From NCBI GenBank assembly GCA_042218325.1, contig JBDGRE010000013.1, positions 13,630 to 77,629 on the forward strand: 64,000 nt of DNA, read 5' to 3'. The position numbers and the translations under genes were made by a program. Every line of letters starts with the position of its first letter. Positions within the stretch are counted from its first letter, which is position 1. The stretch comes from Candidatus Nanohaloarchaea archaeon (lineage in GTDB: Archaea; Nanohalarchaeota; Nanosalinia; Nanosalinales; Nanosalinaceae). Positions 1 through 64,000 of the stretch are shown here, piece by piece. Under the pieces are notes generated by a model. It did not search any database and was not told where the DNA came from. It was given only the letters and a program-made list of their open reading frames with translations.

Positions 1-337
1 CGACCAATTCTCCCTCTCCCTCATAACTAACGACTGTATCGGTAACTGCCGATAGCGAGCTTGAAGGATCAGCACTTTCTTGATAAATACATATTACAGG
101 AACATCGTACATATCAGCCCAGCCAAGCTCTATGCCTAAACCAGTAGATGGCTCTGAAACCTCTCCTATCATTAGATCACATTCTTCTCGGAGAAAAGTC
201 TTGGAATCGAAGATTCCCTCCGAATCCTCGTGAGGAAAAACCAGATTGTGCTCCTCATACAACTTGCTATCCTTCAAAGGCTGGTAGAGACTGCTCTTGT
301 AGTCAATACTGCTGGAATGCCCGACATAAATCTCCAT
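1..337 (-). CDS. Nucleoside 2-deoxyribosyltransferase / DNPH1(RCL)-like N-hydrolase (3' end outside window; not in ORF track)
   Basis: Manual translation MEIYVGHSS...CDLMIGEVSEPSTGLGIELGWA..., matching the NDT/RCL D-x-x-x-x-E-V-x-x-P-S-x-G-x-G-x-E-L-G motif. Confidence 0.8.
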   Translation of the reverse strand, partial: MEIYVGHSSSIDYKSSLYQPLKDSKLYEEHNLVFPHEDSEGIFDSKTFLREECDLMIGEVSEPSTGLGIELGWADMYDVPVICIYQESADPSSSLSAVTDTVVSYEGEGELV

Positions 338-392
338 AGAAAAACACTTTAGAAACGAAATATTATAGGAATTTCTGAATAAAAACTGTGTT

Positions 393-995
393 ATGGCGGT
401 CGGAACTGTTGACGCAATAGTATTCTACAAAGCCAGAGAAGAAGACAAAGAGTTCTTCCAAGAACTCAAACAACAAGACAAAGAAAGACTGGCAGAACTT
501 GGTGTAGACCTGACCGACTACGGCGAACCCGGAATCTACACCGTCCTAATCGAGAGAGGAAAAACACCATACAAAGAAATGTTAGCCACAGCAGGAGGAC
601 ACATAGAAAACGGCGAAACACCTACAGAAGCGGCAATAAGAGAACTAAAAGAAGAAACAGGAATCCAGACAGAACATCTCGAAACAGTAACAGAAGCAAA
701 GGAAAACTTGGAACTTGTATTCGACCCAAGATACGATCCAGAAGACAAACTGCCCGAAGACGAGCCAGAAGAAATCTACCTGATCGATGGACTGGAAGAC
801 AGAGACGGAGAAGACTTCCACTACTACACCGCCGTATTTGACTACCAGCCAGAAAACCCTGACAGACGAAACTTCCAGCTAAAAGGAGAGACAGACGCCG
901 AAAAATCATTCTGGGTTCCATTACAGGAATTGCCGAAAATGGCTTTCACACAGCACAGAATCGTAGAATGGGGTAGAAAACAGTATGAAAGATAA
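393..995 (+). CDS. NUDIX hydrolase
   Basis: Nudix box GGHIENGETPTEAAIRELKEETG. Confidence 0.9.
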   Translation: MAVGTVDAIVFYKAREEDKEFFQELKQQDKERLAELGVDLTDYGEPGIYTVLIERGKTPYKEMLATAGGHIENGETPTEAAIRELKEETGIQTEHLETVTEAKENLELVFDPRYDPEDKLPEDEPEEIYLIDGLEDRDGEDFHYYTAVFDYQPENPDRRNFQLKGETDAEKSFWVPLQELPKMAFTQHRIVEWGRKQYER

Positions 996-1671
996 AGAGT
1001 ACAACGCAGTAATTTTCGATGTAGACGGCGTCATAGCCCAGACAACAGAAGACTGGGAATGGATGGACAAAGTATACCGACAACACTTTCCACAACCCGA
1101 TAAAAACGGCTACAGCGACTGGGAAGAATACCTACAGGCATACGGCAAAATATTCAGAACTCTACACACAGAAACCGAAGACGGAGTATTCGAGGAAGTA
1201 GGGCTGGAAAATGAACAGGTGCTCGAAGCGTATAGTCAGGTTCAGGATAAGAAGAACCGTATAATGAACCAGTTTTCAGTCTACTCTGACGCTGTAGAAC
1301 TATTGGAATACTTGAACGAAGAGGATTACACGGTAGCGGCTGTCAGCAACGCCAGAGAAGATAATGTCGAACTATTCTTGGAGCAAAACGATTTGCTGAA
1401 ATACTTTGACTATGTAACAGGAGTAAAGCTCGAAGACTTCAACAGTTTCAAACAGAGAAAGAAACCTAACCCTGCTATGCTTCAAGAAGCAATCCAAGAA
1501 CTCGACCTCAACCCAGAAACAACAGTAATGATAGGAGATTCCTCAACAGACCGAGACGCCACCCGAAAAATAGAACAACTCGACTACATCCATCTCAATA
1601 GAGGAGTGGAAGTAGATCCTGATGGAGAACAGACAATAGAAAACTTGAACGAACTCAAGGAGGTTCTCTAA
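985..1671 (+). CDS. HAD-superfamily phosphatase
   Basis: FDVDG motif I, SN motif II, KPNP and GDSSTD motifs. Confidence 0.9.
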   Translation: MKDKEYNAVIFDVDGVIAQTTEDWEWMDKVYRQHFPQPDKNGYSDWEEYLQAYGKIFRTLHTETEDGVFEEVGLENEQVLEAYSQVQDKKNRIMNQFSVYSDAVELLEYLNEEDYTVAAVSNAREDNVELFLEQNDLLKYFDYVTGVKLEDFNSFKQRKKPNPAMLQEAIQELDLNPETTVMIGDSSTDRDATRKIEQLDYIHLNRGVEVDPDGEQTIENLNELKEVL

Positions 1672-1674
1672 CCT

Positions 1675-2280
1675 ATGATGGTCAGCACCCATATTCTAAT
1701 CGGGGGACTAATAGGATACCTTTTCTCAACTGCCATCTCTGTAAATCCAGTTACTCTTGCTTTAGCAGGAATGTTAGGAGGTCTTATACCCGAACTTGAT
1801 TTTCTGATAGGACACCACAGGAAAACACTCCACTTCCCATACAGCTATTTCCTCCTGTCAATACCTGTTCTCATTCTGATCCCTTTCTTTCAGGCAGAAC
1901 TTTTGATATTGCTTGCTACCGTGTTAGTGTCGGCTGGCGTTCATTCGTTTATGGATATTTTCGCTGGAGCCGAACTCCGTTCTTGGGACGAATCCGAGTG
2001 GGAAGATACAGCAGTATATGACCATATCAGAGATAAGTGGATTCAACCCCAAAGAATAGCTTACGGAGGATCTATGAGAGACTTTCTGCTCTCAACTATC
2101 TGCTTTTTCTCGACTATCTACCTGATAAATGATCCAAAAATTCTCCTTATCGCAACTGGACTGATAGTTTTCTCTGTAGCCTATACTATGGGAATCAAGA
2201 AAGCATCAGACGAAATAATAGATGGAAAATATGCTACTCTGAATGGATTTATACGATCAAAATTGAAGGCTCTTCTATAA
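1675..2280 (+). CDS. Membrane-bound metal-dependent hydrolase (YdjM/DUF457-like)
   Basis: N-terminal TH, PELD, HRKTLH and HSFMD motifs; multiple TM helices. Confidence 0.8.
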   Translation: MMVSTHILIGGLIGYLFSTAISVNPVTLALAGMLGGLIPELDFLIGHHRKTLHFPYSYFLLSIPVLILIPFFQAELLILLATVLVSAGVHSFMDIFAGAELRSWDESEWEDTAVYDHIRDKWIQPQRIAYGGSMRDFLLSTICFFSTIYLINDPKILLIATGLIVFSVAYTMGIKKASDEIIDGKYATLNGFIRSKLKALL

Positions 2281-2331
2281 TCTTTCAGAACTGCCGTGCC
2301 GCTCTTTTAAGCGGCTAAAAAATATATTTTC

Positions 2332-3381
2332 TTGAAGATGACCGCTGACGACCTTCACGAGCTTGTCGACTACTACGAGGAACAGGAGAAGTACCAGCCA
2401 ATCACTGTTTACCTTCACGGGTTTGTGAATCACTACAAGGGTGACCTGTCCAAAGGGAGTATTGTACAGTATCTGCGGTACTTGGCCTACCTTGACTTCG
2501 ATCCTCTGGACGAGAATCCCGAACCAGAAGATGTCAAGATCGAAGATTTTCACCTTGACAGGCTACAGGAATGGACAAGAGCCAAAGCCCGGAAACGGTT
2601 CGGAGAGTCAGGCGAGAAACTCAACTCCCGTAATAGGTTTGCGTATATGACATATTTGGCCTTGAAAAAATACTTGAAAATGGCAGATCCCTCGCTGTTG
2701 CCATACCTTCCAGACTCCGAACAGTTCGAGAAACCCTACAGTCAACCAAAGACGATATACTACAGCGAGACACAGATCCAAGACCTGATGATGGCGTCAG
2801 AGAACCGAAAGGTCTTCCTATCTATAGCCCTAATGTACTACGCAGGACTCCGTAGTTACGAGCTACTTCACTTGACACCAGAATGGCTGGAGTTCAAAAC
2901 TGATAGGATTGAGATAGAAATACCGCCGAAGTATGCCAAAGGTCAGAAAAATAACCAGACCTCTGAAATCACTTTCCTCAAGAAAATCTATGGAGAAGAC
3001 CTCAAGCAACACATTAAGGATCAACATAACTATGACGGAGACTATCACCAACTGGTGTCACAGTTGGTGGATCAGGAGAGCTTCCAGCCCGTCTTCAACT
3101 ACAAGGAAAACTCCCAGAAATCCTACAGGGAACTGATGAAGGAGAGATACGAACTGAACCAGAAGTTGAAAGAAACCGCCAAGAAAGCAGGATTCAACAA
3201 AGCCGAGAAAATATCCAGCCATAAACTACGCAGATCATTCATTCGGAAAGTCTATGATTCAACCAAGGATCTTTCCCGAACGGCACAGGTAGCCAGACAC
3301 AAAAGTCCTGAAACCACACAGCAATATCTACATCTGGATAAAGAAGAGCAATTAGAGACCTACCAAGAAGCATTTCTCTGA
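2332..3381 (+). CDS. Tyrosine recombinase/integrase
   Basis: AGLRSYE (R), HKLRR (H-x-x-R), ARH...TTQQY (H, Y). Confidence 0.92.
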   Translation: MKMTADDLHELVDYYEEQEKYQPITVYLHGFVNHYKGDLSKGSIVQYLRYLAYLDFDPLDENPEPEDVKIEDFHLDRLQEWTRAKARKRFGESGEKLNSRNRFAYMTYLALKKYLKMADPSLLPYLPDSEQFEKPYSQPKTIYYSETQIQDLMMASENRKVFLSIALMYYAGLRSYELLHLTPEWLEFKTDRIEIEIPPKYAKGQKNNQTSEITFLKKIYGEDLKQHIKDQHNYDGDYHQLVSQLVDQESFQPVFNYKENSQKSYRELMKERYELNQKLKETAKKAGFNKAEKISSHKLRRSFIRKVYDSTKDLSRTAQVARHKSPETTQQYLHLDKEEQLETYQEAFL

Positions 3382-3655
3382 AACTATATCGGTGTGAAAT
3401 CCACAATATTCCTATATACAACGTAGGAAGTAGAGTCAAATAACGCTGATATTATGAGTCGGAAACCGAGTGGTCTAATATAAGTCATAATTGAAAAACT
3501 AAACAACGCTGATGACTCTTTCTACCTGAAAAAATATACGAAGAAGTTCTATAGTCATTATTTTAGGCTAAATGACTGATTAAAGTAGAAAATCCAAATC
3601 AGACAAGACAGAGGATTTCTCTAAATTATCTCTTCGACCCCCAGTTGAAAGTGAA

Positions 3656-3807
3656 AGCCCCGAGAGGGATTTGAACCCTCGACCTGCCCCTTGCTTGCGA
3701 CCAGTTATATTCCCGAAAGCCATGTAAAGCATGGCTTAAAGCGCGCCGCACGGCGCTTTGGCTGGCGGTACAAGGGGGCCGCTCTAGCCAGACTGAGCCA
3801 TCGAGGC
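3656..3807 (-). tRNA. tRNA-Thr(UGU) with 77-nt intron at 37/38 (intron 3692-3768)
   Basis: Cloverleaf GCCTCGA/TCGGGGC, GCCCC-CT-TGT-A|intron|A-GGGGC, GGTTCAAATCC; BHB central helix CTTG/CAAG. Confidence 0.93.
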
Positions 3808-9907: not shown

Positions 9908-10128
9908 GGTGACATTTAAAACAGAAACGGATTTTTATGGCTTTCGGATGACAACTTGTATTTTGGTCCCGAAGAGATAGTATGTTCATGGACCGGCCCT
10001 CAACCAGAGCTAATGCTCAACACGCCCTCTTCAGAGGCTCTTCAAGCTTTGTAGCCTTTATCAGGGTTAGTAGTATTTATAAGGCTAACCTTTTGTCTCG
10101 TCTGGAATTGAGGTGAAAATCCTACTTG

Positions 10129-10725
10129 ATGGAAATTCTTTTACTCATTTATCTGCTATTCCTGTGTATAGGTAGGGAAAGACGAAACGAACCTGAAGTA
10201 GAAGATATCAACCTTGAAGAGATACCCAGGTTCGGAATTCCTATAATCGGGATCTTTCTGGTTTATGCAGCTGTATCGGTCGGATTGAATGATTTGATGT
10301 TAAATCTGGTAATTGGTGGTGCTGGAGTTCTTCTGATAGTTATATTCGGTGTTCTATTCGGTAAAAAGTACCAGGAAGAAGGTTTACAGGAAGCTATAGA
10401 TTACGCTGTTACAGCACCTATAGAAGAGAAAGAAACGGAAAGTAAGTCTCAACCACAAGGTCAAACAACGGAGAAAACTCCCCCGGCACCTGAAAGTTTG
10501 AAAAATGAACTCTACTTTGAAAGAGCGGATAAGCAGTGTGAATGGTGCGGCAAGGACATAGATTCGCCCGATGTTCACCACATTAAACCGCGAGAAGAAG
10601 GCGGACCTAACAAACCTTCTAATTTAATCGTTCTATGTCCGAACTGTCACAGAAAAGCTGATAGCGGAGTTATCAGCCGTTCAAAACTAAAATACCAGGT
10701 AAGGAAAAATAGAGGCGAGGAATAG
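10129..10725 (+). CDS. Membrane-anchored HNH endonuclease
   Basis: N-terminal TM segments; CEWC...HHIKP...N...NLIVLCPNCH. Confidence 0.85.
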   Translation: MEILLLIYLLFLCIGRERRNEPEVEDINLEEIPRFGIPIIGIFLVYAAVSVGLNDLMLNLVIGGAGVLLIVIFGVLFGKKYQEEGLQEAIDYAVTAPIEEKETESKSQPQGQTTEKTPPAPESLKNELYFERADKQCEWCGKDIDSPDVHHIKPREEGGPNKPSNLIVLCPNCHRKADSGVISRSKLKYQVRKNRGEE

Positions 10726-10730
10726 ATACT

Positions 10731-10973
10731 ATGGGAGTTGTCAAACGTGATGGGAAATGGCGTCTCGAGAAGAAAAAGAAAGGTGTCTACCTAGTTACCG
10801 AGAGAGGTCAGCAAAAAGCTAAAATCATAACAGGAGACTATGAACCAGACGGACCTATGAATGATAAAAGAGATGACATGATGTCAAACGTAATAGAGGT
10901 CAAGGATTTTAACGAGGCCAAGAAAGAATTCCGTAGTTTCGTAGAAGGTGGTTCATCTCCAGGATTCTTCTGA
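10731..10973 (+). CDS. Hypothetical protein
   Basis: ORF track; GAGG RBS. Confidence 0.6.
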   Translation: MGVVKRDGKWRLEKKKKGVYLVTERGQQKAKIITGDYEPDGPMNDKRDDMMSNVIEVKDFNEAKKEFRSFVEGGSSPGFF

Positions 10974-10977
10974 TAAA

Positions 10978-11169
10978 ATGAGTAAAGATCCAGTTGAGAC
11001 TGTTATTGAAGCAATTTCTGCCATCTTGATACTTGTAGTTGGACTAAAGATATTGTCGGGATTATTAGAGCAGGCTTCTATCTCTTCAGGTCTAAAATTG
11101 CTGATTCTAGGAGCACTCATTGTAGCAATTATTTCTGTTATCGCCGAGGCGATAGGTGAGGTGTCATAA
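10978..11169 (+). CDS. Small two-TM membrane protein
   Basis: Hydrophobic helices; operon spacing. Confidence 0.6.
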   Translation: MSKDPVETVIEAISAILILVVGLKILSGLLEQASISSGLKLLILGALIVAIISVIAEAIGEVS

Positions 11170-11363
11170 TGGTTAGAGATATTTCTACCAAGACGCTTGC
11201 AGTCAGTCTTTTAGTGGCTGTAGTGGGAGGTCTCGTGGTTTCTATTGTAAGTGAGGTCGAATTAATTTTGAGAGCTGTTATTTTGGATTTGATTATTACT
11301 ATTGCCTTGGCGGTTTACATCTTGTCAGAACCTTGGAACGATGATGAAGAATCGGAGACATAA
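11169..11363 (+). CDS. Small two-TM membrane protein
   Basis: GAGGTG RBS; TAATG overlap. Confidence 0.6.
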   Translation: MVRDISTKTLAVSLLVAVVGGLVVSIVSEVELILRAVILDLIITIALAVYILSEPWNDDEESET

Positions 11364-11412
11364 TATCAGCTTTCAAAATTATTCCTTATGGGAATAATTT
11401 TGGTTCCGGGTT

Positions 11413-11841
11413 TCAGGATTTATCCAGTTCTTTCTCCACTTTCTCCTCCAGCCGGTCTATGATTTCTTCTATTGTTTCTTCGTTCCTGTCGAGATAGTCT
11501 TGGTCTAGGAATTCTCGCCTGTAGTCGATGTCGTTTCTTAAACGCCGGAGCTGGTCCATCAGTTCGAGTTCGGACTGTGAGAAGTCATGGAACTCTTCCA
11601 TGAAGCTTATCAGGCATTCTTGCGAGTAGGATTTGTAGCCTTTTAGGTTGACGAGTGCGGTTACGAGCTTTTTGATGACCTCCCAGTATGATTCGACTAT
11701 GAGCGAGATGTTTTCCTCGTTGCGTTCCCGTCGATTGTTGTCCTCCAGTCTTATTCCTGCCATCTTAAGAAGTGACTCAGCTTCTTCGGGGTTAGGAGAT
11801 CTTTCGTGGACTTTCTCTTATAGGCATTCTTCCCAGTTCAT
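11413..11841 (-). pseudogene. HEPN-like toxin with an early in-frame TAA (11818-11820)
   Basis: MNWEECL*EKVH...; RRLRNDIDY motif; ATGA overlap with the upstream MNT. Confidence 0.7.
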
Positions 11842-13596: not shown

Positions 13597-13728
13597 TGGG
13601 CCCGACGGGATTTGAACCCGCGACAACCGGCTGTCCTTGCAAAGATCGGGATCTTCTAGGTCGACCGCCTCTTGCGAGGAACCCGACGCCTAAAAGGCCG
13701 GCGCTCTACCAGACTGAGCTACGGGCCC
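13597..13728 (-). tRNA. tRNA-Lys(UUU) with 58-nt intron at 37/38 (intron 13633-13690)
   Basis: GGGCCCG/CGGGCCC-A, CCGGC-CT-TTT-A|intron|A-GCCGG; BHB CTTT/AAGG. Confidence 0.93.
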
Positions 13729-47705: not shown

Positions 47706-47857
47706 AAAGGTATTTTGTGCCCGATGCTGTTTTATTAACTGTGGCGGCCATGTTGCTACCGCCGCGTCAACCCGTAAACCGAAACTTATATAAGAGTGGG
47801 GGCTACATGGATGGGTGTCGGGGGGGGAAACGACTCCTTATGCCGGAAAAGGATACT

Positions 47858-48964
47858 ATGTCAGAGCAGGAACACGTACCGCGTCGCGAATTCGACTCTT
47901 ACCAGGTTCCCGAAGAATGGGAGGCTGAAGAAGAGGAAAAACCAGAAGAAGATCCACAGGATTCTCCGGAAGCCGGGGCCGAAGAGATAGACGAGGAAGC
48001 CGTCGCTGAAGGAGAGGGATACACTGTAGTACAGGAAGAGGCCGAAGAGGGCGACATGGTCCTCACCTGTCCCGAGTGTGGGGCACAGCGTTTCGAGGAG
48101 GACTCTGCTGAAGGACAGCTCGTCTGCGTCGAGTGTGGACTCATCGTCGACGAGAACCGTATCGACGAATCCGCGGAATGGCGCGCCTTCAACCAGGAGG
48201 AGCGCGAGAAGAAGGCCCGTGCCGGACAGCCGCTAACTTATACCAAGCACGACATGGGCGTATCCACGGAGATAGGAAAGGGTTCGGGAGAGCTCTACAA
48301 GGTCTCGGGGAACAAGCGCGCACAGTACTACCGCCTGAGGAAGTGGCACAAGCGCCTTACCAAGTCGAAGGACCGTAACCTCGGGTTCGCCCTCTCGGAA
48401 CTGAACTCGATGGTCTCCAACCTGAACCTTCCTGAATCTGTGCACGAGGAGGTCGCCCGGCTATACGAGAAGGCGGTCGACAAGGGCCTCGTCCGCGGCC
48501 GTTCCATGGAGTCCATCATCTCCGCGCTGCTCTACATCGTCGCGCGGAAGCAGGGAACGCCGAGGACCCTGGACGAGATCTCCGAGGCATCGGGCATCGA
48601 GAAACGCGAGATCGGCCGCGCATACCGTTACGTTGCGAGGGAACTCGGTCTCCGCATCCTGCCCGCCAAGCCGCAGGACTACGTACCGCGGTTCGCTGGA
48701 AAGCTCCAGCTATCCGGAGAAGTCCAGGCCCGGGCGCGCCAGATACTGAAGGAGGCGCGCGAGAAGGACCTGCTCTCCGGTAAAGGCCCGACAGGCCTCG
48801 CCGCAGCCGCGCTCTACATCGCCGCGGTGCTCGAAGGCGAAAAAAGGACGCAGCGCGAAGTCGCTGACGTCGTCGGAGTGACGGAAGTCACCATCCGGAA
48901 CCGCTACAAGGAGCTAGCGGAGAAGCTCGGCCTCGAGGACGAACTCGAGGAGAAGAGTAACTGA
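47858..48964 (+). CDS. tfb: Transcription initiation factor TFB
   Basis: CPECG...CVECG, EWRAF, two cyclin repeats, VTIRNRY. Confidence 0.97.
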   Translation: MSEQEHVPRREFDSYQVPEEWEAEEEEKPEEDPQDSPEAGAEEIDEEAVAEGEGYTVVQEEAEEGDMVLTCPECGAQRFEEDSAEGQLVCVECGLIVDENRIDESAEWRAFNQEEREKKARAGQPLTYTKHDMGVSTEIGKGSGELYKVSGNKRAQYYRLRKWHKRLTKSKDRNLGFALSELNSMVSNLNLPESVHEEVARLYEKAVDKGLVRGRSMESIISALLYIVARKQGTPRTLDEISEASGIEKREIGRAYRYVARELGLRILPAKPQDYVPRFAGKLQLSGEVQARARQILKEAREKDLLSGKGPTGLAAAALYIAAVLEGEKRTQREVADVVGVTEVTIRNRYKELAEKLGLEDELEEKSN

Positions 48965-49103
48965 TTCTGGCCGCTGGCCCGGCTGCATTTCCTCTTATTT
49001 CTCTTATTCTTGTTCCTTCGCTTAAATCGACATTCCTACATCCCGGGTCAGATCCATAGAAAATCCGCAGGGATTTTCTGGTGATGCAGAAACTCTATCG
49101 AGT

Positions 49104-49214
49104 TTCGAATCCGGGTCCTGCCAATTGCATTTCTCCACATTTGATAGGAATGCGGGAACTGCCGAGAAACTTTTCAAGTGGTTGGATTATATTACTGTGC
49201 TATTCTTGCAAATT
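49104..49214 (+). repeat. 111-bp repeat starting with a tRNA T-arm/acceptor-like segment (TTCGAATCCGGGTCCTGCCA)
   Basis: 98/111 ungapped identity to 63890-64000 by manual alignment. Confidence 0.9.
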
Positions 49215-49251
49215 CGATTCGGGTAAAAAGAAGAAAGAGTAAATGTTGATG

Positions 49252-49923
49252 TTAGCTAAAGAAATTGTTCAAAAGGTTTGAGACGATTCCAGGGTTTCTT
49301 TCCTGAGCTTGTTCATTTCCCGGTGTTCCGTTAACCGCTTCTTCAGCATTTTGAGATGACCCTTCTCGTTCAACTTCAGCTTCAGTCTCTGTTTCATTGT
49401 CGTCTGTTCTCTGTTCTACTTCTGCCTCTGTTTCCTGTTCACCAGACTCTCGTTCAACTTCAGCTTCAGTCTCTGTTTCGGCATTCCTTCTTTCGAACTC
49501 TACTTCGCTCTCTGAATCAGCTTCTGAATCTTCTGATTCAAGCTCGGCAACTTCTCTTCTCAGGTCCATCACCATTCCTCGAAGCTCATCGATTCTGTCC
49601 TTGGCTTGTTCAAGGTTCTGAACTTCTATTTGTTCAAGCTCTTCTACTTCTGATTCGTTCTCCTCTTTGCCTTCTGTTTCTGCCGCTTCTGATTCGTTGA
49701 TAGAGAGTACTGTGCTGTTGTCGGTTTTTTCCATCTCTAAATCGTCTTCTGTCTCATTCTCTTCCTGTTCTATGACTTCTTCGGTTTCATTTTCTTCATA
49801 CTCTGCTTCTTCTGTCTCTTCCTCGTCATCCGAGTCGTCTTCTGGAACATCTGAATCATCTTCCTCCGTCTCATTCAAATGTTCATCAGCCATTACAGGA
49901 GCCAATGCCAACATCAAGACCAT
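49252..49923 (-). CDS. Secreted, extremely acidic protein with internal ETEAEVE repeats
   Basis: Signal-peptide-like N-terminus; 32-bp identical repeat at 49364-49395 and 49448-49479. Confidence 0.7.
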   Translation of the reverse strand: MVLMLALAPVMADEHLNETEEDDSDVPEDDSDDEEETEEAEYEENETEEVIEQEENETEDDLEMEKTDNSTVLSINESEAAETEGKEENESEVEELEQIEVQNLEQAKDRIDELRGMVMDLRREVAELESEDSEADSESEVEFERRNAETETEAEVERESGEQETEAEVEQRTDDNETETEAEVEREGSSQNAEEAVNGTPGNEQAQERNPGIVSNLLNNFFS

Positions 49924-49998
49924 TGCAAGTGCTAAAAACTTGCCTTTGCTTGATACCTAAAATTGGAATTAATTCTCTTGTTATAAATAATAACCGAT

Positions 49999-50016
49999 AA
50001 TTCGGGCCCTGCCAAT
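49999..50016 (+). repeat. Short copy of the tRNA-3'-like repeat
   Basis: AATTCGGGCCCTGCCAAT vs AATCCGGGTCCTGCCAAT (16/18). Confidence 0.7.
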
Positions 50017-50052
50017 ATTTATATTTTTTTTAAAGGAAAATGTTAATGATCA

Positions 50053-50518
50053 ATGAAAATATCCAATAATATTTTTTTTGGCATTTGCTCTCTTCTTAGG
50101 CATTTTTCTTGTTATTCAATATCAGGTTTCTAGTCATGATATTAAGATTGTAACAGGTTCGGGAAAAAACACCTCTTCGGTAAATCCGGAACATACCTCT
50201 TCGATAAGTCCTGAAAACCCCCAATCTTCTGTTCTTGAAGTAAATGTGTTGAAGGCATCAGATTACTCGGGTTTTTCAAAAGGGGATGATATCCGTTTAA
50301 AAATTAAGTATTATACTAATCCTCCTCCTTCCCTAAAGTTTCTGTCATCTCTTAATAATTTAACTGAAGGAGATAGAATCCGTGTTTCGAGTCGTAGTGG
50401 AAATTGGACCGGGGAATTTATTTCCTTTGACAAAAGGAATATTGATTCTTTTGACCAAAAGATCAGTCTAGGAAACTCGCCCGACTGGAATCAATCAATA
50501 AGTTTTTTTTTTCAGTAG
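50053..50518 (+). pseudogene. Membrane-anchored hypothetical protein, probably frameshifted near the start
   Basis: ATG at 50053 is out of frame with the 50078 ORF across A/T homopolymers. Confidence 0.45.
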
Positions 50519-50653
50519 ACTAATCTGTATCTCATCAATTAAGAAAAGGTGTTCAGCCGAAGAGAACTCGCAAGTTCATTTTTGGCCGACAATCTGAATT
50601 TATGGGGGGCGGAGACTGTGGTTTTTATTATTTTTTATTTCGGTTGTTGAGTT

Positions 50654-51165
50654 ATTTTTCCGTTTTCGCATTTCTTCACAGGCTATTTGATTGGCTTTCT
50701 CTTGACAACTTTAGGATTAGTAGATTTATCTAGTACAACCGTGGCAGTATTTGGAATTCTATCTCTGCTGCCAGATGCTGACGCCATATGGCACAGCAAA
50801 ATCAAAGAACATCATAAAACGCTATTTCATGCACCGCTATTCTGGATAATTATTTCCACTTTGACTTTATTTGAGAGTACAGAGATGGCAATTATAATTT
50901 CGTCCATCACCTTGACCCATATTTTTACAGACTATATAACCGGCAGAACGGTCGGTATCGCGTTTCTATACCCGATTAAAGATAATGAAGTAAGTCTATA
51001 TCCATTAAATGATGAAACTGCCAGTCTTAATCCTGTGAGTCCACAAAAAGAACTCCTGAACAACATCTATCATTTTACATTGAAAACAAAAAATTGCTGA
51101 TATTTGAAGGGCTTCTCACAATCTCAGGAGCAATCAGTCTAATTATACTAATCCTCCAGCTATGA
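50654..51165 (+). pseudogene. Membrane-bound metal-dependent hydrolase, start lost and 3' frameshift
   Basis: (I)FPFSH...PDAD...HHKTLFHAP...HIFTD; C-terminal TM is in another frame. Confidence 0.65.
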
Positions 51166-51174
51166 CTATTCATG

Positions 51175-51231
51175 GATTCCGGAAACTTCCAATTGCATAT
51201 CTCCACATTTGAAATGGATACGAAAACTCCC
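51175..51231 (+). repeat. Degenerate copy of the tRNA-3'-like repeat
   Basis: CCAATTGCATATCTCCACATTTGA core nearly identical to 49121-49144. Confidence 0.85.
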
Positions 51232-51234
51232 AAA

Positions 51235-51683
51235 TTAGTGTTTGTACTCTTTGAGGTTTACATCTTTATCAGCTGGGCCATAAAGTTCAGGCAGAAGTTC
51301 TCTTAACTTAGTTTCTTCAGTCTCTTCTGTCCCTGCCATGAGAATTGTAATATCATTTTCTTCATTAGGTTGAGCAAATTCGTTCATCAACTGTAGACAC
51401 ATTCCACAAGGTTTGAATCCTGTAGAAGAATCTCTCATCACACATATACCCTTAAATTGATAGTTTCCCTCTGTTACAGCATTTCCAATGGCGTTTCGTT
51501 CTGAACAAGTTACCATCCCAGATATCATGCTCTTGACATTAACCCCTGTATATATTTCCCCCTTCTCGGTTAATACTGCTGTGGATGTCTAAGTACCTCC
51601 TGAAGGTGTAAAGGCATTACCTAAAACTTTTTCGGCTTCGTCAATTAATCTGGACTTTTCATTTTCGATAGGGTCGTTGACAT
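51235..51683 (-). pseudogene. Cytidine deaminase with in-frame TAG and 5' frameshift
   Basis: GEIYTGVNV...CSERNAI...PCGMC...LLP. Confidence 0.8.
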
Positions 51684-51716
51684 ATACTGATAATTAATCC
51701 CTATTATCAATAATTT

Positions 51717-51777
51717 AATCCCGGAAGCTGTCAACTGCATATCTTCTTGATTTCGGTTCAGACATACGTCCTGCCAA
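51717..51777 (+). repeat. Two adjacent degenerate copies of the tRNA-3'-like repeat
   Basis: AATCCCGGAAGCTGTCAACTGCATATCT and CGGTTCAGACATACGTCCTGCCAA. Confidence 0.6.
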
Positions 51778-51844
51778 GTAGTTTGCAATTTTGCCTTCAG
51801 CTCATCATGAAAATAGTTTAATAGCCTCTAACTCGAAATCGGAT

Positions 51845-52102
51845 TTATGCAATTTCTTCCAGATAACTCAAGCCCCGGAATTCTTCAGCTACCTTGTTTT
51901 TAACATGGAAGTTGCCGGTTTCATACACCTCTTCAATAACTTTGCTTGAAGGTATTAGATAGTGTTCTCTTGGTTCTCCTACTACGAGCAGGAAAATGTA
52001 TGCGATGGAAAGATTCTCTCCAGCTCTTCCTCTTCTACTTGCGTGAAAACTCGGATGTTCTAACTTGTCCTCGATTGCCTGAAGCCCTTTACAATTCCCC
52101 AA
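51845..52102 (-). pseudogene. Gene fragment of unknown function
   Basis: Short AT-rich ORF with a protein-like C-terminus only. Confidence 0.3.
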
Positions 52103-52140
52103 TTTTTCCGGTTGAGTTTCCAGTGCTGTAAAAACTTTGT

Positions 52141-52436
52141 CTACTCCAGCCCGTACTCGTCCCAGTCCGAGTCTCTTATCGAGAAGGATATGTCGTAGTG
52201 CTCGGTCCGGGCACTTTCCAGGGCCGCGATCTTAGAGAACACCCGATAGACGAAGTTGTGGTGTTCCTCGTACTGGCCGTCCAGATATACGTCGATTGCG
52301 TTGACCTCGCCGCGCCAATCTATTCGTGCATCCAGGTGTCGACTGCGTCAGGCATGTCCACGTCGAACTCCTCGCCCGCGTAACTTTCCATCAAATCGTT
52401 CGCCTGACTGGCGTTTAGTCATCCCTTTCTTGCCAT
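52141..52436 (-). pseudogene. Decayed acidic hypothetical gene
   Basis: Core-like codons interrupted by TGA, TAG and a frameshift. Confidence 0.4.
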
Positions 52437-52572
52437 AAAGGGAGCGCTGCCGGCCAGGAGAGGTTTTTTGTCTTGCCGGGGTTCGACTTCTTCCAGTTTG
52501 TCGTCTTCATCAGATTCTGCTGAGATAGTTATTACTGTTCAACAGTTCGCATTCAAGAAGTAAAATGGTTCC

Positions 52573-53670
52573 CTACAGCTCCCGGATGATACCCTTGATA
52601 TCTTTTATGGGCGCGTCCGTCCTGAAACCGGTCGGCGAGAAATGCGTCCGTGAAACAGGATAGCCCTTCTCATCGATGGCCTCTATAACGCGGTCGCGTT
52701 TGGGTACCTGTATCTCGAGCAGCGAGCACAGCTCGTGGAGGTCGTAGAACGGCGTCAGTATCTCCGCTTCCTTGTGGACCAGCTCCAGGATTTCGCGTGC
52801 TTCTTCCCAGTCCTCCGGCATCTCGTCCATGATCTCTCCAGTGAACCTTCGATCCGCTATCTTCCCGGTCCAGAGCGGGCCGGCGATCTTTGTCTCGCCT
52901 CCGCATAGAGGGCACTCAGCTTTTCTTTCAAGGGCACGCCATCGGCACTCCGGGCAGAACGACAGGTGGCCGATGTTCTCCGTGTTTTTGTTTGCGCGGC
53001 GCTTCGACTCCGTCACTCTTCCTGTTGCGCGGGAGTAGTGCTGCTCGTGCCAGCACAGTTTTGGGTCGAAGTCCTTGTCGAACCGGGCGAAGTTCCGGAA
53101 AGCCTCCTTGATGTATATCCTCAGCCCGGTCTCGTGCATGAAGCTGTTCTTCAGCGGCGTCGAACCGTACCTCCGTTCACATACCTTCGGGTAGCTTCCA
53201 GCCGGTGCCGCGTTGTCGGTTGCGGTAAAACCTGCGAGGCTCTGGTAGTTTGCTGCTCGTGCCGCAGAGTCGAGGTAGTTCGTGAACGAGCCGAAAGGGT
53301 CGACGTCTATTATATTGAAGTAGTTGCCGTGCTCGGAGAGCAGGACGTTCGCGTCCTTCTCCGTGACCTCTGCCTTTATGCCGTTTTCCCCCAGGCCTCT
53401 CCTGATGCTTTCGACCGCCTCCGGGCTGGTGTCGTTGATGACGACGTTACCGAAATCCGTGTACCGGAAGCCGCGGATGCCTGAAGCTGCGAGCGCGTCG
53501 CAAATCCGCGGCCCGTCGATCTCGGTCTCGTCGAGGAACACTTTCGCCGCGGTGACGGAAAGATCACGGTTCGCCAACATGTCCTTGTTGTAGAAGACCT
53601 CCGACTCCTTGTCGGGCTCCTCTTCTCTCGCGGCGAACAGCGAGAAACCGCGCTCCTCTATCTTATCCAT
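52573..53670 (-). CDS. trm1: tRNA (guanine-26-N2)-dimethyltransferase
   Basis: VFYN...NRDLS...ASGIRG...DVDPFGS...GPLW. Confidence 0.95.
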   Translation of the reverse strand: MDKIEERGFSLFAAREEEPDKESEVFYNKDMLANRDLSVTAAKVFLDETEIDGPRICDALAASGIRGFRYTDFGNVVINDTSPEAVESIRRGLGENGIKAEVTEKDANVLLSEHGNYFNIIDVDPFGSFTNYLDSAARAANYQSLAGFTATDNAAPAGSYPKVCERRYGSTPLKNSFMHETGLRIYIKEAFRNFARFDKDFDPKLCWHEQHYSRATGRVTESKRRANKNTENIGHLSFCPECRWRALERKAECPLCGGETKIAGPLWTGKIADRRFTGEIMDEMPEDWEEAREILELVHKEAEILTPFYDLHELCSLLEIQVPKRDRVIEAIDEKGYPVSRTHFSPTGFRTDAPIKDIKGIIREL

Positions 53671-58208: not shown

Positions 58209-59942
58209 ATGACAGACGGTGAAATTCACAAGGTAACAGGGCCGGTCGTAGTCGCGACCGGCATGAACCCCCAGATGAACGACGTAGTACGCGTCGGTGA
58301 CGAGGGGCTGATGGGAGAAGTCATCCAAATCGAGGGAGAAAAATGCTACATCCAGGTCTACGAGGACACAACAGGCGTCAAACCTGGAGAGCCGGTGGAG
58401 AACACTGAGCAGCCGCTATCCGTGGAACTCGGGCCCGGCCTGCTCGGCTCCATCTATGACGGCCTCCAGAGACCGCTCGAGGTCCTGCAGGAGAAGACCG
58501 GCGACTTCATCGCAAGAGGAGAAGACGCACCTGGAATCAATCCTGACGAGGAGTACGATTTCGAGCCGGTCGTCGAGGAAGGCGACGAGGTAGAGGCAGG
58601 TGAAATACTCGGAGAGGTCGACGTATCCTACGGAACGCACAGGGTCATGCTGCCGCCGCATATGGACGGCGGAGAAGTCGAAACCATAGAATCCGGCTCC
58701 CACTCGGTACGGGAAACCGTCGCCGAGGTCTCAGGACAAGAAATCTCCATGAGGCAGGAATGGCCTATCAGGGAGGACAGGCCGGTCGAGGACGACCTCA
58801 AGCCGGAGATACCTCTCATCACAGGACAGAGAGTGCTCGACGGGCTGTTCCCGATAGCAAAAGGTGGTACCGCAGCGGTACCGGGAGGCTTCGGAACAGG
58901 AAAAACAGTTACACAGCAGTCGCTCGCAAAGTTCTCGGATGCGGACATCATCGTGTACATCGGTTGTGGAGAACGTGGAAACGAGATGACCGAGGTACTC
59001 GAGGAGTTCCCGGAGCTCGAGGACCCGCAGACCGGCGACAAGATAATCAACCGTACAGTACTCATCGCGAACACGTCTAACATGCCTGTAGCCGCACGTG
59101 AAGCCTCGATTTACACAGGCATCACCATCGCGGAGTACTTCCGTGATATGGGACTCGACGTCGCGCTCATGGCGGATTCAACGTCGCGGTGGGCGGAGGC
59201 CATGCGTGAGATATCTGCACGGCTGGAGGAGATGCCTGGAGAGCGTGGATACCCGGCTTACCTGGCGTCGAAGCTGGCCGAGTTCTACGAGAGGGCCGGC
59301 AGGGTCGACCCTCTCGGCGTCGACGACCCTGGAAGCGTCTCCATTATCGGCGCAGTCAGCCCACCGGGCGGAGACTTCTCCGAGCCGGTCACACAGAACA
59401 CGCTGAGAGTCGTCAAGAACTTCTGGGCGCTCGACAAGGACCTCGCGGAGAAGCGGCACTTCCCCGCGATAAACTGGGACGAGTCCTACTCCGGCTACGA
59501 GGAGCTGATGCACGAGTACTTCGGCGAACAGGTCGACCCGGAGTGGGGCGCGAAGATACAGAGGATGAAGGACCTGCTGCAGAAGGACAGCGAGCTCCAG
59601 GAAACAGTCCAGCTCGTCGGGAAGGACGCGCTGCCGGATAGAGAAAGGCTGACGCTGGAGATCGCGACGATGCTGAAGCAGTTCTTCCTGCAGCAGAACG
59701 CGTTCCACGACGTCGACCAGTACTGCCCGCCGGAGAAGACCTTCAAGATACTCGACCTCATCCTGGACTGGGGAGACAACGCGTACGAGGCGCTTGAAGA
59801 CGGCGCGCTCGTGTCTGATATCATCTCGGTCGACTCCCGGAACAGGATTTCCGAAGTCGCGATATCCGAGGACTACGACGAGAAAATCGAGGAAATCCGC
59901 GGCCAGATGGAAGAAGAGTTCGAAAAGGTGGTCGAGCAGTGA
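58209..59942 (+). CDS. ahaA: A-type ATP synthase subunit A
   Basis: [25 protein letters not shown]; no intein. Confidence 0.98.
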
Positions 59943-62228: not shown

Positions 62229-62305
62229 CCCCTTTCAGAGAGTGTTTACTCCCCCAACATTTTTACCTATTTCCCGAATAAAGATTCTTGATAGGTTCAC
62301 CAACT

Positions 62306-62464
62306 ATGGCAGATGAAGGTAAAAGACGCGTACAATCAAAAGGCGAGATAACCTTGCCCAAAGAATTCCGAGAGGAAAATGACATCTCCCCTGGAGATTA
62401 TATCACTTGGAAACGCCACAGCCGCGACAGCTCAAAACTGATAATCGAAGTAAAGAAAGATTAA
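62306..62464 (+). CDS. AbrB/MazE/SpoVT-family DNA-binding protein (52 aa; not in ORF track)
   Basis: RVQSKGEITLPKEFREENDISPGDYITW. Confidence 0.85.
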   Translation: MADEGKRRVQSKGEITLPKEFREENDISPGDYITWKRHSRDSSKLIIEVKKD

Positions 62465-62722
62465 AACAGAACTATATTTGACAATTTTTTCTTTCACCTT
62501 TTTCTTCTGTTCTTTATCCAAGTCGTATTTCTCAATAATTTTATCCAATTCTTCTTCATCTATCCGGCCTTCAGACCTATTCTCTTCAATTTCTTTCTCT
62601 ATATCTTCAGCTACATCTTCATCCAGATTATTTAGTGCAACTTCTAATGCAGGATGCTGATCGATTGAATCATTTTTCAAATCCTCAGTTTTCTCTAAAT
62701 TATAACTCATAGCAGCAAACAT
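62432..62722 (-). CDS. Hypothetical protein, possibly a fragment
   Basis: Acidic ORF; 3' end overlaps the AbrB gene. Confidence 0.45.
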   Translation of the reverse strand: MFAAMSYNLEKTEDLKNDSIDQHPALEVALNNLDEDVAEDIEKEIEENRSEGRIDEEELDKIIEKYDLDKEQKKKVKEKIVKYSSVLIFLYFDYQF

Positions 62723-62974
62723 ACAGTGGCTTCCTGGTTCTGCGCCGTAATCATGACGGGTAAAGGGAGCGGTTAGATAAACTGTTTTGAAAAGCTGTAT
62801 TCCGGTTGCGGCAGGCGTTTATCCGTCTCTCCGAGATAGGTGGTAGAACTAAGGAGCAGGAAGAAGAACTTGAAGAAGTTAAGAGAAGGATCTGGGAACT
62901 CAAAAAGTCGATAGCTGGAGAAGAAGACCCTCATCCTTTCACCTCGAACCCTGAAGAAATAGAAGGTGAGTTGT

Positions 62975-63385
62975 ATGGCTGAAGAAGATTTGAATTGGGA
63001 AAAAGCTGAATCACGCAGTGATTTGTTTAGCCGGTATTGGTATCATCCTAAAGCCGGAGATATATTGGAAGATATAGATGGAAACAGAAATATCACGTTC
63101 CTCAGCGATAGAAAGTATATCTCGATTTATGCCACTTTTGCAGCGATAAGGAAAGACATCAATGACCTGGTTCAAAGAGTCAACGAACTGGAGAAAGAAA
63201 GTGATACCGGAGGAAGTTTGGAGGAACGTGTCATGGCTTTGGAGGAAAAGCTGCCTAAAACCCGGACAGAGAAAATCCGTTACGACCTGGTAAACACCGA
63301 TAAGAAACAGAAAGAGATAGCAGAACGGTACGGAGTATCTCCAGAGTACGTTTCCAAGGTTAAACGTGAGGCCGGAATCCAATGA
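62975..63385 (+). CDS. Coiled-coil + C-terminal HTH protein
   Basis: AGGTGA RBS; QKEIAERYGVSPEYVSKVK. Confidence 0.75.
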   Translation: MAEEDLNWEKAESRSDLFSRYWYHPKAGDILEDIDGNRNITFLSDRKYISIYATFAAIRKDINDLVQRVNELEKESDTGGSLEERVMALEEKLPKTRTEKIRYDLVNTDKKQKEIAERYGVSPEYVSKVKREAGIQ

Positions 63386-63870
63386 ATCGAGAACATGACC
63401 GGAACTACAGCATCATGGTTAAGGTCCGTAATGAAGACCCATACCTGCCTCCAAGTAGGCATCTCGATACAATGGAGCTGCCGAAAGGAGAAAGGAACCC
63501 GGTAGAGGATGAAAAGGAATTGGTTTCACTGCTCTACTTGGTGTATAAACGGGAGATGAAGGTAAGTTTGCAGGTGAGTAGGGGCGGGTTCAAAACCTGT
63601 TATCGTGGATTGATAGACCCTGTTTTCAGGAAGACGCGGAGAGGGGGAAAGAGACTGCGTTTTGTCAGGTTCAAATCGTTTGAAGAGTCACTGGAGTATT
63701 ATCTCGGCATCGAACCTGTCCACCCCACAACAGAGAAGGATAATCGCTGGATTAAGATAGAAGATCCGGAGAGTTTGGTTCCCTCAAAGTTCTTGGAAGA
63801 GAAAAGGGAAGAGTTCCAAGACTACCAGGAAGGTTCTCGGCATCGAGTAAATGAAAAAGAAAGATTTTGA
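63382..63870 (+). CDS. Hypothetical protein
   Basis: ATGA overlap with the upstream HTH gene. Confidence 0.6.
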   Translation: MNREHDRNYSIMVKVRNEDPYLPPSRHLDTMELPKGERNPVEDEKELVSLLYLVYKREMKVSLQVSRGGFKTCYRGLIDPVFRKTRRGGKRLRFVRFKSFEESLEYYLGIEPVHPTTEKDNRWIKIEDPESLVPSKFLEEKREEFQDYQEGSRHRVNEKERF

Positions 63871-63884
63871 GGTATTATCAGGAT

Positions 63885-64000
63885 TCCGGTTCAAATCCGC
63901 GACCTGCCAATTGCATATCTCCAGATTTCATAGGGATGCGGGAAATGCCGAGAAACTTTTCAAGTGGTTGAATTATATTACCGCGTTATTTTTGCAAATT
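63885..64000 (+). repeat. tRNA-3'-like repeat, long copy (may continue beyond window)
   Basis: CCGGTTCAAATCCGCGACCTGCCA followed by about 90 bp matching 49124-49214. Confidence 0.9.

Follow-up and report, generated by a model that had tools for sequence, protein, structure and literature searches.

A candidate array of integrase-less gene cassettes bounded by tRNA-Pro-derived repeats in a low-GC island of a nanohaloarchaeal genome

The window, as we call the whole stretch of DNA analyzed here, comprises 64,000 nucleotides (nt) from a salt-lake archaeon of the Candidatus Nanohaloarchaea, namely positions 13630 to 77629 of contig C5 in a genome (G000) of 1.07 Mb and 35 contigs. It contains convergent core genes for TFB (transcription factor B) and Trm1 that lie 3.6 kb apart, and the space between them holds a low-GC island, at 49040 to 52140, in which short repeats stand between small genes. 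On balance, we favor the reading that this island is an ectopic array of integrase-less cassettes set between tRNA-Pro-derived repeats; the cassettes would have been moved by site-specific recombination and would then have decayed. The original prediction pointed the same way, and its main line was right: attachment (att) sites derived from a tRNA, discrete cassettes, a variable platform, and decay. Movement of the array at the present day would be an extrapolation from comparisons of sequence. The GC content of the island is 0.34 to 0.44, apart from two measuring intervals that straddle its edges, and compares with 0.58 to 0.64 in the TFB gene on the left and 0.52 to 0.59 on the right side. 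Below, the genomes of relatives are labeled G001 and so on, individual loci L0xx or L1xx, contigs C, and one run X3.

The repeats match the 3' end of a proline tRNA gene. The original prediction took them for tRNA-derived att sites, and the parent tRNA does exist: intron-aware ARAGORN placed a tRNA-Pro(UGG) at positions 58851 to 58925 of contig C2. Its last 20 nt show two differences from repeat copy 1 of the island and are followed by the same conserved arm of ~45 nt, so that the repeat consists of a tRNA 3' end (the core) and a downstream arm (P'). In full extent, it covers the final ~20 to 30 nt of tRNA-Pro(UGG) and ~45 conserved nt beyond. The 5' end forecast for the parent, GGCAGGN, was wrong; the actual end is GGCGGGG or GGCGGGA, which pairs via a G-U. 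The core of copy 1 carries the acceptor version of the tRNA-Pro in G005, G007, G015, and G018, unlike that of its own genome, which fits a foreign origin. Genome-wide, there are 10 core-plus-arm sites at an E value of ≤0.01, nine of them inside low-GC islands (10.4% of the genome in total) or no more than 200 nt away from one, and the tenth 470 nt past an island edge. This placement, together with the boundaries of the first cassette described below, bears out the expectation that the repeats sit at breakpoints of gene content. The layout on C2 is classical, running from tRNA-Pro through a 0.8-kb low-GC segment and displaced tRNA 3' fragments into host DNA, and the segment holds one gene with a weak RadC-like match. 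Several contigs, C5 and C26 among them, end in the repeat, as expected if the repeat breaks assembly.

To score the copies, a repeat profile (nhmmer) spanning the core and the downstream arm was built from six full copies in G000. All copies in the island lie on the plus strand. Copy 1 (49104-49167) combines a core equivalent to the last 20 nt of the tRNA-Pro gene with a P' arm of ~45 nt and matches the profile at an E value of 8.6e-21. Copy 3 (51175-51233) has a variant core and a P' arm, matches at 1.3e-9 over 51176-51233, and is 77% identical to copy 1 over 57 nt; its variant core is also present on C26, on C2, and in G006. Copy 2 (49999-50016) is a short core of 18 nt, 89% identical to copy 1 and without the arm, and alignment with two other cassette copies identifies it as the conserved right end of cassette 1. 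Copy 4 (51716-51744) is degenerate, with a profile E value of 0.26, yet it is 81% identical to copy 3 over 27 nt. Copy 5 (51753-51776), a degenerate core agreeing at 17 of 24 positions, is the weakest. Only 10 sites on both window strands lie within 8 mismatches of that 24-mer, at least two of which (12741 and 13597) are real tRNA genes and three of which are repeat copies. Five same-strand copies had been proposed, and their positions and strands were confirmed, although those at 51717 and 51753 are weak. A 20-mer spanning the core and arm has 3 matches in the window at ≤3 mismatches against 0.02 expected, and the plus strand of the island has 3 matches within 9 mismatches against 0.23 in shuffles. 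A further full copy stands at 63890-63953 on the plus strand (E value, 5.4e-20), 47 nt from the contig end. A possible sixth core at the right edge of the island (52108-52131, plus strand), very degenerate with 15 of 24 positions and located exactly at the GC switch, was rejected as being at noise level, since 33 window sites match equally well.

Neither a tRNA-Pro nor an integrase was found in or beside the island by ARAGORN, Pfam, and integrase searches, in agreement with the original prediction. An Rfam scan of 48900-52600 returned nothing at the repeats and just two matches at chance level. In its bacterial mode, ARAGORN reported 0 tRNAs in the window; the intron-aware mode found three, none of them for proline. 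ARAGORN counts 31 tRNAs in the genome, most of them with long introns (up to 139 nt), and those in the window are found only when introns are allowed.

The first unit in the island is cassette 1 (49124-50016), whose cargo is a gene on the minus strand (49252-49923) for an acidic protein of 223 amino acids (aa) with a hydrophobic N terminus and no Pfam or NCBIfam family. All of 49104-50016 aligns with L058, a locus in a metagenome-assembled genome (MAG) of another genus, with 578 nt at 87.5% identity and 347 nt at 78.7%; there, the unit lies between two repeat copies, ~1 kb from a tRNA-Gly. A further alignment, of 784 nt at 72.6%, is with L065; here tRNA-Pro(UGG) is followed immediately by this unit. 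A second copy in G000 is split between the end of C5, starting at 63890, and the start of C27, and the C5 part is 88% identical to 49104-49214 over 111 nt. Cassette 1 thereby occurs in four places, twice in G000 and once each in two other genera, with different flanks in each. On the left, its homology sets in within the final bases of the core and continues past P' to 49214 and beyond; on the right, it stops immediately behind the short core. These breaks at both ends put the exchange point within ~8 to 13 nt at the extreme 3' terminus of the tRNA sequence, and the left break in the core means that P' belongs to the cargo downstream of it. The DNA identity of cassette 1 is 79 to 88%, whereas the Trm1 proteins of the same genera are only 62 to 65% identical, which indicates that cassette 1 moved between genera after their divergence. 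Two further, weaker cases of shared cargo agree with this. A NIF3 domain in an island on C31 is 81% identical to a tRNA-Pro cassette of G005, and a cassette gene on C26 has a relative at 68% DNA identity in G059, ~140 nt from a repeat copy.

From these units, a mechanism can be proposed. A cassette would consist of a P' arm of ~45 nt, a cargo of one or two genes, and a short core from the 3' end of tRNA-Pro(UGG), and the cargo genes appear to carry their own promoters, as judged by eye for cassette 1 only. Cassettes would circularize and insert by site-specific recombination at the tRNA 3'-end point. The catalyst would be a tyrosine integrase acting in trans, supplied by a resident or passing element that targets tRNA genes; candidate enzymes are the integrase types encoded on C26 and at the distal end of the G059 tRNA-Pro array. 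Behind TFB, the array would have been built up from an att copy that predates the split between the source species and G001, and unused cassettes would afterwards decay. The predicted decay is visible in an in-frame stop in a cytidine deaminase gene of the island and in the degenerate repeats.

The repeat and the arrays are widespread in relatives. A 141-nt query that included the sequence ahead of copy 1 (the P-arm, see below) had matches in 12 of 18 other family genomes and in 0 of 12 genomes from four other families of the order. With a 64-nt query, matches were found in 22 of 50 family genomes and 14 of 21 genera, G000 included. As a rule, the repeat immediately follows tRNA-Pro(UGG), and further copies in the same orientation separate small low-GC segments. 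Arrays of one to four cassettes of 0.5 to 2 kb stand at tRNA-Pro(UGG) in G001, G005, G009, and G012 and at loci L057, L061, L065, L069, and L105. The three segments in G001 hold an MNT/HEPN pair, a ParE/RHH pair with two open reading frames (ORFs), and one ORF; there are likewise three segments at L057, two at L061, and one each in G005, G009, G012, and L069. Locus L099 has three single-gene segments and begins with a core without a called tRNA, and in G007 and L074, repeat copies lie right behind tRNA-Pro with unclear segment limits. At C2 and at 11 loci of relatives, the inserted DNA lies between an intact tRNA and a displaced 3' fragment. Arrays distant from tRNA-Pro occur also in G011 and G059. 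The cargo of the arrays includes toxin-antitoxin pairs, a C5 methylase, a peroxiredoxin, NIF3 (two), and YdjM-like proteins (two, in arrays on C16 and in G009, plus that of the window), and cassette genes are found in either orientation, both in the window and in relatives' arrays. A scan covered 39 array ORFs, of which 10 came from further loci of G000 and 29 from 15 other loci; none matched the integrase family PF00589, not even as a fragment. Where genomes are closed (G001, G007, and G011), distances of more than 75 kb separate the integrase matches from the arrays. A 19-nt pattern of the repeat gave 0 matches in a scan of viral contigs and 50 stretches in genome contigs against ~35 expected by chance, by our own arithmetic; 12 of the 50 are from archaeal MAGs, nanohaloarchaeal ones among them, and 10 of those were inspected.

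Two integrases merit attention as candidate recombinases. The low-GC contig C26 encodes one of 405 aa, a tyrosine recombinase with a zinc ribbon. A repeat copy starts right after its stop codon and is followed by two two-gene segments, each ending in a repeat. In G006, a genome from a different genus (GC content, ~45%), there is an integrase with 97% identity to the C26 enzyme. The second candidate, on contig C37 of G059, is 32% identical to that of C26 and belongs to the sole tRNA-Pro array with an integrase. The order there is tRNA-Pro(UGG), a cassette of 144 aa, a core (att), an ORF of 99 aa, and the integrase, as would be expected if a cassette had entered at the tRNA after an integrase-bearing element was resident. 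We consider this the best link between an array and an integrase. Across the 22 genomes, 4 of 45 repeat matches have an integrase within 5 kb on the same contig, as compared by eye: those on G000:C26, G059:C37, and G010:C44 and a subthreshold match on G009:C25. By sequence, the integrases are generic Xer-like tyrosine recombinases, and relatives of the C26 and G059 enzymes are found at 31 to 66% identity. A metagenome scan with the C26 integrase returned three loci, none with the repeat; two of them have a tRNA-Leu(TAG) just upstream and the third begins inside the integrase. The recombinase acting in trans that the original prediction called for is still a supposition.

Directly before the core of copy 1 stands a unit of ~64 nt (49040-49103, plus strand), the P-arm unit, made up of a degenerate second copy of the T-loop and ~55 nt with two hairpins. 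The P-arm and core together, ~85 nt, are conserved on C16 of G000 and in G001, G007, and G008, with 98% identity to G007 over 50 nt; outside the window, the unit is located at L013:4354-4439, L042:8731-8815, L043:8485-8569, and L032:1465-1548. Compensatory changes at 3 pairs in a set of 8 sequences preserve both hairpins. The unit often lies at array junctions, sometimes with a further conserved spacer ahead of P'. Candidate explanations for it are an accessory recombination site, a landing pad, and a tRNA intron relic. The tRNA-Pro(UGG) genes of two other nanohaloarchaeal MAGs (L105:2241-2377 and L065:940-1073) have a 61- to 62-nt intron with two hairpins at the canonical position; those of G000, G001, and G007 have no intron. 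A split or intron-bearing tRNA at 49040-49124 was considered and dropped, as no 5' half or acceptor partner was seen upstream by eye, and the stretch is read as a fragment. The P-arm profile alone gave three extra matches elsewhere in the genome, which may be chance hairpins.

A bolder version of the proposal, which we put forward only tentatively, is that the system is a functional counterpart of the integron, in which a trans-acting tyrosine recombinase would capture circular single-gene cassettes with promoters of their own. On that still speculative view, capture might target the final bases of tRNA-Pro(UGG) as well as portable landing pads, and such a pad might be the P-arm plus core, which could seed arrays at new places, for example, behind TFB. 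If this were true, these 1-Mb symbionts would draw on a gene pool common to several genera.

The locus that carries the island varies among relatives. Its conserved flanks are the TFB gene on the left (47717-48964, plus strand; Pfam TFIIB repeats and zinc ribbon), a host gene of high GC content, and the Trm1 tRNA methyltransferase gene on the right (52573-53670, minus strand; PF02005; E value, 4.5e-89). The two are neighbors in 10 of 11 loci of relatives, and Trm1 is present in 29 of 31 genomes. The gap between them measures 55 to 1,140 bp in 10 relatives and contains differing small genes. In the closed genome G001, of the same genus, it is 4.4 kb long and of low GC content, with a repeat copy ~120 nt behind a TFB stop codon (E value, 7.9e-9), compared with 140 nt in the window, and a second, degenerate copy visible by eye; the gap shares no sequence with the content of the window island. 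In a closer relative, represented by a contig of run X3 with 52 differences in 486 nt of Trm1, position 48962 is joined to 52573 via 458 other letters. The locus is, as predicted, not invariant, since the gap ranges from 55 bp to 4.4 kb with different content among relatives. It is a hot spot of gene turnover even without the tRNA-Pro repeat. The gap gene differs in most genera; G014 and G004 share one, and G002 and G018 share another. In G001 (L041, G001:C1:750000-766000, ~10108-11790), a 1.6-kb insert behind TFB is flanked by a duplicated TFB 3' end of ~80 nt, so that this end of TFB is an attachment site in its own right, used by a different element and the second kind of such site at this spot.

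Several other explanations have to be weighed. The one with most substance, although we consider it unlikely, is classical accretion followed by decay, in which full-size, integrase-bearing elements integrated serially and deletions left tRNA fragments between their remnants. The pseudogenes and degenerate repeats of the island would suit such a history, as would the integrase-bearing element within the G059 tRNA-Pro array, the seven integrase matches in G000, several of which adjoin other tRNA genes, and the scattered partial tRNAs that are described for tycheposon islands. What speaks against it is that the same 0.9-kb core-to-core unit with the same ends is found in four contexts, which independent decay would not yield. 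In addition, no integrase or fragment was seen in the 39 array ORFs, and rows of single-gene units recur across many genera. If, on the other hand, the repeat were a homology block only, cassettes would be swapped by homologous recombination after DNA uptake. Repeats that are long (65 to 110 nt) and well conserved between genera could serve in this way, and no recombinase is linked to the arrays in closed genomes. We nevertheless think it improbable, given that the breaks fall within the same ~8 to 13 nt at both ends of cassette 1 in all copies, that the P' arm always travels with the downstream cargo, and that the sequence is the 3' end of a tRNA gene, the classical target of tyrosine integrases.

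An artifact of assembly or binning, by which low-GC DNA of another organism was joined at the repeat, seems very improbable. In the source run, the left part of the island (48817-50072) is indeed fragmented into short unitigs, which accords with the presence of a second copy of cassette 1; the repeat is common to other contigs, and some low-GC contigs of the bin resemble G006. A single 5,749-nt unitig of that run, however, covers 50072-53300, across the right edge into Trm1, without a difference, and a unitig of 210 nt leads from TFB through the P-arm into copy 1. At the corresponding place, the closed G001 also carries an island with this repeat, and together with the spanning unitigs, this makes an artifact unlikely. 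In contigs of 4 runs, the joints between 49124-49163 and 51176-51189 arise because repeat copies that belong to other loci cross-match there. A true integron, or a cluster of attC sites without an integrase (CALIN), is hardly credible at all. The island does share with integrons small cassettes in a row, sites on the same strand, and a cargo rich in toxin-antitoxin genes and genes of unknown function. The att unit, though, is conserved in sequence and folds no better than shuffles as single-stranded DNA (z scores of -1.30 to +0.91 for six DNA folds of 76- to 78-nt att units), the genes face both ways, and the best nearby integrases fall far below the integron integrase model TIGR02249, with 40.7 bits for the C26 enzyme against a cutoff of 265 and no match for the G059 enzyme. 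The label integron-like from the original prediction therefore holds as a functional analogy and fails for the IntI integrase, the attC fold, and a shared gene orientation.

A number of observations weigh against the cassette array that we favor. It is not at a tRNA gene, and the arrival of an att copy behind TFB is left unexplained by it. Copy 2 is without an arm, copies 4 and 5 are weak, and there is no convincing repeat at the right edge. Cassettes 2 to 4 have no DNA relatives (50017-52560 compared with 50 family genomes, in which the repeat alone matched), so that their status as cassettes depends on the degenerate repeats; the claim of small mobile cassettes holds for at least one discrete unit shared between genera and is not borne out for these three. 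No recombinase is tied to the repeat sites in the island, the arrays, or the integrase relatives examined. The homology with G006 ends at the stop codon of the integrase, behind which G006 has no repeat. Relatives of the C26 integrase adjoin tRNA-Leu or tRNA-Gly, and those of the G059 integrase stand beside tRNA-Val or at a contig end, none beside tRNA-Pro. Contigs C26 and C3 (L008 and L015) are 90% identical in DNA to G006 (L048, G006:C16), and to judge from this identity, C26 may not belong to this organism; for both contigs, mis-binned DNA of a different organism or a recent transfer would be an explanation. Homologous recombination between the repeats of 65 to 110 nt would be another, if improbable, route of exchange. 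Finally, neither an excision circle nor an empty site in the same strain was seen in the contigs, a material that is unable to show either.

Among described systems, the closest by analogy would be tandem islands at tRNA genes, tycheposon islands, and cis-mobilizable elements. The cis-mobilizable elements related to streptococcal integrative and conjugative elements (ICEs) are att-flanked, lack recombination genes, and are thought to use the integrase of a neighbor. The array is like them in having att flanks and no recombination genes of its own, as cassette 1 illustrates, and the order of the G059 array would fit. Unlike the array, they are bacterial, larger, and tied to conjugative elements, and mobilization in trans would here be a supposition. 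For crenarchaeal chromosomes, gene capture via integrase-mediated integration at tRNA genes was reportedly described by She et al. in 2001. Here, too, archaeal chromosomes would accumulate integrated elements at tRNA genes; capture of that kind follows splitting of the integrase gene, whereas no split integrase is seen here. Tandems of phages and ICEs, which are related to the cis-mobilizable elements, are treated in PMC13651849.

Islander-type islands, which may be tandem at tRNA genes (PMC4383910), are comparable in the tyrosine integrase target in a tRNA gene, the regenerated gene, and the displaced 3' fragments at the ends, and also in the arrays that arise by repeated integration at one site; the C2 locus fits this description. 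The units here differ in being 0.5 to 2 kb long and without integrases, in a repeat that extends ~45 nt past the tRNA, and in arrays that also stand away from any tRNA gene, as in the window. At the window, direct repeats matching the 3' part of the tRNA are present, and an intact tRNA at an end and an own tyrosine integrase are absent. Islands built by tycheposons in Prochlorococcus contain scattered partial tRNAs and degenerate remnants, according to a preprint (bioRxiv 10.1101/2020.12.28.424599). The likeness lies in a small streamlined genome, flexible genes in tRNA-adjacent islands, and elements split by partial tRNAs. There are also differences: tycheposons carry their own integrase and leave remnants that include fragmented integrases, against 0 of 39 array ORFs here, where an integrase-less cassette is shared whole between genera and the host is an archaeal symbiont. 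The tycheposon hallmark, an own tyrosine recombinase and a replication module by a tRNA, is absent from the island and the scanned arrays. Integrons and CALINs are reported also in Archaea (bioRxiv 10.1101/2022.02.06.479319). In general, integrons and CALINs resemble the arrays in their rows of small cassettes that end in a recombination site, in their accessory cargo, and in that an integrase may be absent nearby; unlike them, the arrays have no IntI, no attC fold, and no layout of attI and common promoter, have genes facing both ways, and have an att site derived from a tRNA. No description of this cassette system was found in literature on integrases, tRNA genes, genomic islands, and direct repeats of nanohaloarchaea and on integrase-less integrative elements of archaea, the supplementary tables of which may hold relevant data.

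Nanohaloarchaea are obligate symbionts with genomes of ~1 Mb, and the gain and exchange of accessory genes among them are poorly known. A cassette system based on one tRNA would be present in 14 of the 21 family genera that were searched, with units shared between genera at far higher identity than core genes. It would explain part of the flexible genes, such as those for surface and secreted proteins, toxin-antitoxin pairs, methylases, and membrane proteins, and it would be a second, independently evolved route to gene capture of the integron kind. The system lends itself to direct testing, since the sequence at the junction of a free cassette is predictable.

The remaining genes of the island and its surroundings agree with what had been described from the sequence, including the YdjM match, the cytidine deaminase domain, and TFB upstream; Trm1 lies downstream. 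To the right of cassette 1 is an ORF of 153 codons (50057-50518, plus strand) with a hydrophobic N terminus, no ATG, a first start codon (TTG) at 50078, and no family found. It is probably damaged; a variant contig of the source run has extra letters at 50031 and 50071. The gene for the YdjM-like membrane protein follows at 50651-51100 on the plus strand (PF04307; E value, 1.7e-10). The cytidine deaminase pseudogene (51235-51684, minus strand; PF00383 and TIGR01354, with the domain match at 51235-51588) has its in-frame TAG at 51589-51591, which in translation lies inside the conserved N-terminal part. The last low-GC gene is an ORF of 85 aa (51845-52102, minus strand) with no known family. 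Beyond the GC switch, a high-GC stretch with broken reading frames (52141-52520, minus strand) has no family and no relative in 50 family genomes; it is probably a damaged host gene or older gene between the island and Trm1. Two other low-GC regions lie in or partly in the window. One, of 17 kb, occupies the start of the contig (C5:1-17425, window 1-3800) and is probably a separate large integrated element; close to its end are an integrase (window ~2767-3345) and a tRNA-Ala(UGC) gene with an intron (window ~3656-3807). The other (window 62229-63889), with a host gene on one side and the contig-end repeat copy on the opposite side, has three ORFs of 96, 139, and 162 aa without a known family.

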